DNA of 64,000 bases. Origin: Eledone cirrhosa. Taxonomy: Eukaryota. The stretch covers positions 69,378,001 through 69,442,000 of the forward strand of contig OZ024747.1 in NCBI GenBank assembly GCA_964016885.1, read 5' to 3'. Made by a program: the position numbers and the translations under genes. Position 1 is the stretch's first letter. Every line of letters begins with the position of its first letter. This document shows positions 19,541 through 21,312 of the stretch, in pieces. The notes under the pieces were generated by a model, which saw nothing but the letters and a program-made list of their open reading frames with translations, was not told the DNA's origin and ran no database searches.

Positions 19541-20797
19541 AATTAAGTTAAAAATGTACATCCACATATGTATACTGAAATACTAGTATGCATATGAATA
19601 CACACACGTGTACATATGTAGATGTACCGAGTTTTTCACTGGACACTTTACTGTGAGTGTCCAGCTATTCTGTATGTAAACACACAGACAAACCGGTTTT
19701 TAGAGTCATACTGGTTTTCGAGGAAACACCTTTCCTCTATTCTCCAGAAAGCCAGACAAGGAATATTGGACTAGTTTCGATGTTGTTACATCTCATCAGC
19801 AATATTTACCTATCTTCCGGCCTTTCTAGAGAATCGTAAAAGCACATATCGTTATATGCTTTTTCTATGAAAATTAGTAGTGGGCAGACTAATTTGCATA
19901 AAGCGTGAGTACGTACCGGTTCAGCGGAGACGATAAAAACAAATAACGAAACGAAATAAAATTTCGTTTCGTTTGTAACTCACTTTTGTATGACTGACGC
20001 TTAAACAATTAAGATAAAAATGTACATCCACATATGTATACTGAAATACTAGTATGCATATGAATACACACTCGTGTACATATGTAGATGTACCGAGTTT
20101 TTCACTGGACACTTTACTGTGAGTGTCCAGCTATTCTGTATGTAAACACACAGACAAACCGGTTTTTAGAGTCATACTGGTTTTCGAGGAAACACCTTTC
20201 CTCTATTCTCCAGAAAGCCAGACAAGGAATATTGGACTAGTTTCGATGTTGTTACATCTCATCAGCAATATTTACCTATCTTCCGGCCTTTCTAGAGAAT
20301 CGTAAAAGCACATATCGTTATATGCTTTTTCTATGAAAATTAGTAGTGGGCAGACTAATTGCATAGAGCGTGAGTACGTACCGGTTCAGCGGAGACGATA
20401 AAAACAAATAACGAAACGAAATAAAATTTCGTTTCGTTTGTAACTCACTTTTGTATGACTGACGCTTAAACAATTAAGTTAAAAATGTACATCCACATAT
20501 GTATACTGAAATACTAGTATGCATATGAATACACACACGTGTACATATGTAGATGTACCGAGTTTTTCACTGGACACTTTACTGTGAGTGTCCAGCTATT
20601 CTGTATGTAAACACACAGACAAACCGGTTTTTAGAGTCATACTGGTTTTCGAGGAAACACCTTTCCTCTATTCTCCAGAAAGCCAGACAAGGAATATTGG
20701 ACTAGTTTCGATGTTGTTACATCTCATCAGCAATATTTACCTATCTTCCGGCCTTTCTAGAGAATCGTAAAAGCACATATCGTTATATGCTTTTTCT
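19541..20797 (-). mobile_element. Retrozyme-like ~465-nt tandem array, left arm (~2.7 units)
   Basis: Units start at 19541, 20007 and 20472; minus-strand HHRs at 19762-19806, 20228-20272 and 20693-20737. Confidence 0.87.
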
Positions 20798-21312
20798 GAG
20801 TTACAAACGAAACGAAATTTTATTTCGTTTCGTTATTTGTTTTTATCGTCTCCGCTGAACCGGTACGTACTCACGCTCTATGCAAATTAGTCTGCCCACT
20901 ACTAATTTTCATAGAAAAAGCATATAACGATATGTGCTTTTACGATTCTCTAGAAAGGCCGGAAGATAGGTAAATATTGCTGATGAGATGTAACAACATC
21001 GAAACTAGTCCAATATTCCTTGTCTGGCTTTCTGGAGAATAGAGGAAAGGTGTTTCCTCGAAAACCAGTATGACTCTAAAAACCGGTTTGTCTGTGTGTT
21101 TACATACAGAATAGCTGGACACTCACAGTAAAGTGTCCAGTGAAAAACTCGGTACATCTACATTTGTACACGTGTGTGTATTCATATGCATACTAGTATT
21201 TCAGTATACATATGTGGATGTACATTTTTAACTTAATTGTTTAAGCGTCAGTCATACAAAAGTGAGTTACAAACGAAACGAAATTTTATTTCGTTTCGTT
21301 ATTTGTTTTTAT
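20798..21312 (+). mobile_element. Retrozyme-like ~465-nt array, inverted right arm (~1.1 units)
   Basis: Reverse complement of the left-arm unit; ends TTTGTTTTTAT into TA. Confidence 0.87.
20973..21017 (+). ncRNA. Canonical minimal type I hammerhead ribozyme (4 copies in the array)
   Basis: AATATTG-CTGATGA-GATG taacaa CATC-GAAA-CTAG-TC^CAATATT: perfect 7-bp stem I, G-C closed stem II, palindromic stem III ACTAGT, GUC site. Confidence 0.93.

Follow-up and report, generated by a model that had tools for sequence, protein, structure and literature searches.

A back-to-back insertion of a 466-nt hammerhead retrozyme in the genome of Eledone cirrhosa and its likely origin from a Penelope-like enzyme priming twice on one RNA

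In the window analysed here, a stretch of 64,000 nucleotides from the genome of Eledone cirrhosa (GCA_964016885.1, contig OZ024747.1, positions 69,378,001 to 69,442,000), two TA microsatellites enclose a repeat with a unit of 465/466 nt at positions 19541-21312, and the question raised by this locus is what kind of element it is and by what route it came to be inserted there. A preliminary description had taken it for a tandem array of about 3.8 retrozyme-like units of about 465 nt. While the unit length is confirmed and its copies are near-identical (99%), the arrangement is not that of a tandem array: Tandem Repeats Finder reports 2.7 copies reaching up to 20797, and the remainder is the same unit on the opposite strand. 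In the sense of the ribozyme strand, a left arm of 2.70 units with three consecutive hammerheads (minus strand) runs leftwards and a right arm of 1.11 units with a single hammerhead (plus strand) runs rightwards, the two arms meeting 5' end to 5' end at 20797 with 1 nt common to both. This inversion, together with the unequal ends of the arms, was overlooked before and is the informative feature of the locus. In the following, phase denotes the position counted from the ribozyme cut site, and A and B denote two internal sites at which arms have their 3' ends.

10788..19540: (TA)n-type microsatellite, left flank and target of the insertion
19531..19540, plus strand: left copy of the probable target-site duplication (ATATATACAT), of uncertain length within the TA tract
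19541..20797, minus strand: left arm, 2.70 units; the 3' end of its RNA lies at phase 228 from the ribozyme cut (site B, without tail) and the 5' end at phase 369
19769..20234, minus strand: predicted cut-to-cut monomer, 466 nt
20235-20699, minus strand: next predicted cut-to-cut monomer, 465 nt
20798..21310, plus strand: right arm, 1.11 units; it begins 5' at phase 253 and ends 3' at phase 300-302 (site A, with tail)
21239..21310, plus strand: 'tail' of ~72 nt, bounded by sites B and A and confined to the right end, containing a long ACAAACGAAACGAAA hairpin
21311..21320, plus strand: right copy of the probable target-site duplication, ~10 bp
21311..22172: (TA)n-type microsatellite, right flank

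With respect to the ribozyme, inspection by eye of the plus strand reveals CUGAUGA at 20980-20986, GAAA at 21001-21004 and GUC ending at 21010, together with stem I (AAUAUUG/CAAUAUU) and stem II (GAUGU/ACAUC), and Rfam HH9 yields four matches at 38.9 bits (E 6.8e-8), which do not reach the gathering score of 52. The earlier characterisation of this motif as perfect and textbook applies to the complete type I core, and with it stands the cut position after 21010 as a prediction; it does not apply to stem III, which consists of one A-U pair closed by a palindromic CUAG loop and is thus not stable inside one motif. Because of this single pair and the palindromic loop, the window hammerhead is classed by our analysis as dimer-dependent, its activity being predicted, and two copies are computed to pair via CUAG at -6.2 kcal/mol. 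The same architecture, a palindromic tetraloop capping a one-pair stem III with the loop 1-loop 2 motifs retained, is known from the axolotl HHR_Amex1 and newt satellite 2, albeit in a unit of 330 instead of 466 nt (PMC7229834; PMC6155905). The monomer of HHR_Amex1 cleaves by 6% in 1 h and its dimers do so far better (PMC7229834), and of the predicted Xenopus dimers one in nine cleaved and eight did not (bioRxiv 10.64898/2026.07.22.740005).

20973..21017, plus strand: type I hammerhead with a stem III of 1 bp and a CUAG loop, predicted cut after C21010
20677..20748, minus strand: hammerhead copy, predicted cut between 20700 and 20699
20212..20283, minus strand: hammerhead copy, predicted cut between 20235 and 20234
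19746..19817, minus strand: hammerhead copy, predicted cut between 19769 and 19768
30090..30633: copy of a 95%-identical subfamily without a complete hammerhead, arms 30090-30344 (minus) and 30345-30633 (plus)

The unit is non-coding, with a longest stop-free frame of 69 aa and a longest frame from Met of 19 aa in a trimer of the ribozyme strand; it contains no RT plus GIY-YIG reading frame and is not an autonomous Penelope-like element. The open reading frames listed for the window are mostly read-through of TA, and Rfam microRNA matches were dismissed as noise from TA repeats. Together with the unit size, the consecutive type I hammerheads, the stable fold described below and a target duplication of more than 4 bp, this bears out the retrozyme-like label, and 19541-21312 is, as judged from its sequence, a non-LTR retrozyme of recent insertion, built from a non-coding hammerhead repeat of 466 nt. 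Nor is the unit exceptionally large, as had been supposed: although 465 nt slightly exceeds the 150-450 bp given for animal retrozymes in PMC7229834, it lies inside the 51-972 bp of bioRxiv 10.64898/2026.07.22.740005.

The family is widespread in the genome. An exact 32-place core pattern has 3,087 matches (control 0), a best-scoring search found at least 185 matches, mostly at 99-100% identity, from 40 of 434 candidates, and the copies are dispersed over many contigs at 99-100% identity, forming arrays that reach 15.8 units and contain no coding sequence. From 100 matches falling into about 36 clusters, the number of insertions in the genome is estimated at roughly a thousand. Arms were mapped at the 33 best-scoring loci plus the window, at 30 loci of the 95% subfamily, at 20 loci of a sister family with a unit of 471 nt and in 33 stretches of contig C1 sampled in genome order. 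The 471-nt family, met in locus L056, is identical to the 466-nt unit in 268 of 497 alignment columns, and a further sister family of ~430 nt accounts for 10,274 core-pattern matches; both sister families (L125-L174 and L175-L194, respectively) bear GUA hammerheads.

All five hairpin arm pairs named in the preliminary description were found in the sequence, and the free energy of the folded monomer is -157.8 kcal/mol (z = -10.4), a value that none of 100 shuffles equalled. The opposite strand folds well, too (-141.6, z = -8.7), because the hairpins are two-sided; however, the ribozyme strand is ahead by 18 kcal/mol as against 6.3 +/- 4.3 in 12 shuffles, and the two sister families display a strand advantage likewise. 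G-U pairs number 10 of 159 on the ribozyme strand versus 5 of 148 on the opposite strand and occur in the stem enclosing the hammerhead, so that the remark that this stem uses G-U pairs on the ribozyme strand is upheld to a moderate degree. In the predicted structure the hammerhead stem closes off the entire unit; this fold is retained across families at 54% identity, in the sister families (471, 430 nt) through compensatory changes, and loop 1 (UA) and loop 2 (UAAYAA) are conserved between families. The proposed covariation check among 11 monomers including the sister families found two-sided changes in 24 of 102 consensus pairs, three of them in stem I and two in stem II, compared to 2-7 in slid controls, in favour of selection at the RNA level. 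As the 11 rows amount to about three lineages with few events per pair, and the structure was derived from the same rows, this is to be taken as support spread over many helices and not as a probability. The copy at 30090-30632, which had been suggested for this comparison, was unusable for the hammerhead, since CUGAUGA is missing in both of its arms.

How the two arms came to lie back to back can be approached through the positions at which arms end. In the best-scoring and genome-order sets, 112 of 117 arms have their 3' end at one of two internal sites ~70 nt apart, namely site B (phases 219-236, 52 ends) and site A (phases 288-305, 60 ends), and none of the 117 ends lies at the ribozyme cut. 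In turn, the 5' ends are evenly spread, with 6 of 120 near the cut versus 5.7 expected. Homologous end sites are present in the 471-nt family at phases 244-252 and 311-315.

These two sites are strictly paired. All 70 scorable two-arm insertions have one A end and one B end, and no true A/A or B/B insertion within a family was seen among them. The 70 comprise 22 best-scoring and 19 genome-order insertions, 13 of the 471-nt family and 16 of the 95% subfamily, and for the 19 genome-order insertions alone (22 rows minus one duplicate, L240, and the two halves of the compound locus L247) the chance probability of such pairing is about 2e-6. The first pair table had 68 rows, 57 of them A/B; two rows at the edge of a stretch were dropped, as were eight with a truncated or off-site end (three in the 471-nt family, where one microsatellite artefact and one older diverged copy were also met), and the lone row with the same site at both ends proved to be a TACA microsatellite match. 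In the table of the 95% subfamily, the 30 loci divide into 18 mixed pairs (two of which repeat L256/L257), three duplicates, eight unscorable loci and one apparent same-site pair, L101, in which an internal motif had been matched while the arm continues to site A. Locus L056 is no breach of the rule either, its two arms belonging to different families. The tail may lie on either side (site A is on the left in 25 of 57 rows), the site B arm is the longer one in 28 of 57 rows, arm lengths are uncorrelated, and, by eye, each of the 18 clusters with both strands that occur in the first 100 genome-order matches runs minus, then plus. Five seemingly single-arm loci (L039, L058, L063, L097, L227) have a tiny inverted site-B stub of ~7-25 nt at their 5' side, and at L247:1842-4578 two back-to-back insertions are fused tail-to-tail within the tail hairpin.

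As to the target, the 3' flanks inspected are mostly (TA)n, and target duplications of 11-12 bp could be read at the non-microsatellite sites L060 and L234, most TA sites being unreadable in this respect. The inverted 5'-truncated arm, the tail at one end and the AT-rich or microsatellite target make up a footprint of the Penelope type, for which 3' ends fixed at internal sites, 5' ends at random positions, inversion of one arm, a tail on one side and insertion into AT-rich DNA have been reported (PMC8557442).

The arms also carry information on their template. Within an insertion they differ by a median of 0.4%, as against 1.9% between loci (45 pairs), and at recurrent minor alleles they agree at 561 sites and disagree at 19; in the window insertion, a change at phase 277 occurs in both arms and is absent from the 33 other loci compared. 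Both arms of an insertion thus share a haplotype, a match to which gene conversion between the inverted arms could have contributed. A linear cleaved monomer can be dismissed as template, since the arms traverse the cut site and neither of their ends clusters there, which leaves circles or uncut multimers. Variants confined to some units recur in both arms at six loci (L045, L051, L053, L064, L225, L248); because of these part-of-unit variants a monomer circle was not the template there, the six loci point to multimer templates, and rolling on a monomer circle is not supported as the sole route. At L045 the B arm fits the A arm best when shifted by three units (13 matches and no mismatch versus 7 and 6 unshifted), which counts against priming in the same unit unless there was a later rearrangement. 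A higher-order periodicity is seen in the long arms of L042/L043, L248 and L051 (4, 6 and 2 units, respectively).

Strict A/B pairing is most simply read as both ends of the target priming on one RNA, one per site. Starting from the observed anatomy, two end sites, strict pairing, shared haplotype, TA target and duplication, we consider it likely that the back-to-back insertion arose from a Penelope-like reverse transcriptase-endonuclease that primed twice on one RNA. On this account an array would be transcribed on the ribozyme strand, its tandem hammerheads would pair through CUAG and cut, and the resulting monomers or oligomers may become circular. A Penelope-like protein, probably as a dimer, would bind near the hairpin between sites B and A and introduce two nicks into AT-rich DNA, one per strand and ~10-12 bp apart. 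The two 3' overhangs so formed would pair with the RNA over 1-3 nt and serve as primers, one at site A, the other at site B. Both cDNAs would then cross the ribozyme cut for a variable number of units, on a circle or an uncut multimer, and their ends would be joined through 0-6 nt of microhomology or short filler before the second strands are filled in. Whether a Penelope-like dimer clamps a single retrozyme RNA at the B-A hairpin and copies it from both nicked strands simultaneously, with one enzyme per site, each rounding the circle or following the multimer, is in our view an even call.

Such a route agrees with what has been reported for a purified Penelope-like protein, a predicted dimer: both DNA strands are cut and extended by it, and synthesis begins at two internal positions of the RNA that bound the tail (PMC11167929). 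Against it count the like use of both start sites by top and bottom strands in vitro (PMC11167929) and the tail of ~72 nt, which is longer than the published 30-40 bp. In the autonomous Penelope-like family of this genome, an end of which lies at 27706-30089, ends are likewise of two kinds (16 tailed, 17 tail-less, one at the edge), the tail measures ~85 nt, and both scorable pairs (L067, L092) combine one tailed with one tail-less end. A further point against it is that a search of the loci retrieved found no partner element, the unit having no similarity to the Penelope-like elements of the window or to 29 3' ends of one family beyond TA-rich stretches. For the ends compared, and with a non-coding unit, there is thus no sign of its being part of the UTR of a coding Penelope-like element, an alternative named from the outset.

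The same retrozyme and enzyme might also have primed only once, the first cDNA folding back or switching onto itself. In that case the second end would be set at the other site of the DNA copy, either through annealing of the upstream DNA end or through endonuclease cleavage. Such a course would account for the haplotype common to both arms, for L045, where the B arm lies inside the span of the A arm, and for single-arm insertions that terminate at either site, and PMC8557442 attributes the tail to endonuclease resolution of an intermediate. However, a multimer offers many A and many B sites, yet 0 of 70 pairs are A/A or B/B; short arms often start at a phase beyond the 5' end of the long arm; and L056 requires two RNAs. 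We therefore regard single priming as doubtful, and its simplest form, a pure fold-back with A always first, is rejected by the 28 of 57 rows with the longer B arm. It is unlikely, too, that the unit is a detached pseudo-LTR of an autonomous Penelope-like element, derived from uncut read-through transcripts, with a hammerhead that works for the parent element and circular RNA playing no part. In Xenopus, 24 of 57 families are homologous to 22 elements, 21 of them Penelope-like (bioRxiv 10.64898/2026.07.22.740005), hammerhead cleavage was dispensable for insertion in vitro (PMC11167929), and the mixed units in both arms, the weak RNA signal of the family (see below) and the low share of cleaving Xenopus dimers would all be in line with such an origin. 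Against it stand the long arrays devoid of coding sequence, the mapped arms, which border TA or the opposite arm, the retention at 54% identity of a predicted fold closing the unit on the hammerhead stem, and the conserved loops 1 and 2, which are missing from the minimal hammerheads of Penelope type described in PMC6155905.

A purely DNA-level origin, as a satellite or fold-back element shaped by recombination in TA tracts with an incidental hammerhead, could draw on the periodicity typical of unequal exchange in some arrays (L042/43, L248) and on the good folding of both strands. Nevertheless, the copies on many contigs at 99-100% identity, the fixed 3' ends with random 5' ends, termini that are not equal inverted repeats, the presence in three families of an unbroken catalytic core and of compensatory changes in the stems, and the strand bias of folding largely exclude it, and we consider it highly improbable. 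Twin priming by a Penelope-like enzyme remains the preferred reading, although its single RNA is at odds with L056:3385-5224, in which an arm of the 471-nt family and one of the 466-nt family are joined at 5 nt of shared TTTGT and both ends are A-type. This insertion indicates that two RNAs can be used; it looks like priming on two RNAs and implies one enzyme common to both families.

The 466-nt unit, a new sequence family, shares with published animal non-LTR retrozymes the non-coding tandem unit with one type I hammerhead, a high AT content and strong self-pairing, as well as thousands of copies, duplications of more than 4 bp and co-occurrence with Penelope-like elements (PMC7229834; bioRxiv 10.64898/2026.07.22.740005). 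Mobilisation of animal retrozymes by Penelope-like elements has been argued in the same reports from co-occurrence and pseudo-LTR similarity. The inverted arms, paired end sites and TA targeting found here are not among the features these sources describe for animal retrozymes, as far as they are drawn on here, while cleavage and circles are demonstrated for published animal retrozymes and, for the 466-nt family, predicted and conjectural, respectively; a search of the open-access literature found no report of paired ends for retrozymes.

With Penelope-like elements bearing an endonuclease, the family has in common the inverted 5'-truncated arm, the tail at one end and the microsatellite bias (PMC8557442; PMC11167929), as well as two internal start sites and the extension of both strands (PMC11167929). 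It differs from them in lacking a reading frame, in the longer tail, in having multi-unit arms on both sides and in the one-site-per-arm pairing, counted here in the retrozyme. The formation of inverted, tailed Penelope-like insertions is called open in PMC8557442 and PMC11167929. Twin or dual priming of L1 likewise produces two inverted cDNA arms between target duplications, and L056 resembles L1 dual priming on two RNAs; however, L1 arms derive from separate segments of a poly(A) RNA, without overlap, and their second site varies (PMC2837659), whereas the 466-nt family lacks poly(A), has two fixed sites and shows arms that overlap by entire units.

Accordingly, the class, the size, the hammerhead type and the one-sided tails of Penelope-like elements are already known, and this locus contributes a pairing rule backed by counts, the haplotype common to both arms and their indifference to the ribozyme cut. 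Many young loci provide mechanistic footprints with two base-precise start sites, one per arm, on one template, and a short non-coding RNA makes two-site twin priming testable. If the clamped-dimer reading holds, the A/B pairing would be a genomic record of the Penelope-like integration step and direct evidence for the mobilisation of retrozymes by Penelope-like elements, and the 466-nt RNA would offer a ready substrate.

With regard to expression, no data set listed as RNA was found to contain the family, a result without evidential weight. Run X4 is spliced, two ribosomal-protein exons being joined over a 3,655-nt GT..AG intron at a depth of 3,072, and run X1 reads through the introns of the same gene at a depth of 3-5; these depths are sums over contigs, which carry no strand, ends or circles. 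In X4 the family reaches a depth of tens to about 200, compared to about 1e5 in the DNA run, a ratio far below that of other repeats. This X4 library, its selection not being recorded and non-polyadenylated circles being outside its reach, gives no sign of an abundant family transcript. Runs X5 and X6, with one or two family pieces each, were left out.

The window holds several further elements of related kinds. At 27706-30089 lies a Penelope-like element that is truncated at its 5' side, is frameshifted and carries a hammerhead-like motif at 30026; its truncated 3' end meets the left end of the 30090-30633 copy at 3 nt of shared ATG. A template jump between these neighbours was rejected, as they lie tail-to-tail, are both truncated and have only ATG in common; a deletion or nested insertion is the simpler explanation. 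At 5073-5500, within TA, inverted end pieces of Penelope type have hammerhead-like cores at 5221 (minus) and 5304 (plus) and a one-sided extension of ~50 nt. Penelope-like coding fragments are found on the minus strand at 6215-7730, with RVT_1 and a weak GIY-YIG match, and at 33312-34961, with no Pfam match and a duplicated end. Near-identical LINE copies lie amid TA tracts at 8347-10788 and 22172-25950 (minus), RT being found in the first, and a run of N occurs near 22600. Finally, a 310-nt hammerhead family, seen in two insertions (window 1214-4187 and L043:5117-8375), is also arranged back-to-back with ends ~35 nt apart. A genome search with the 310-nt unit, which passes over common words, gave no match; unlike in the other families, its opposite strand has the better fold.
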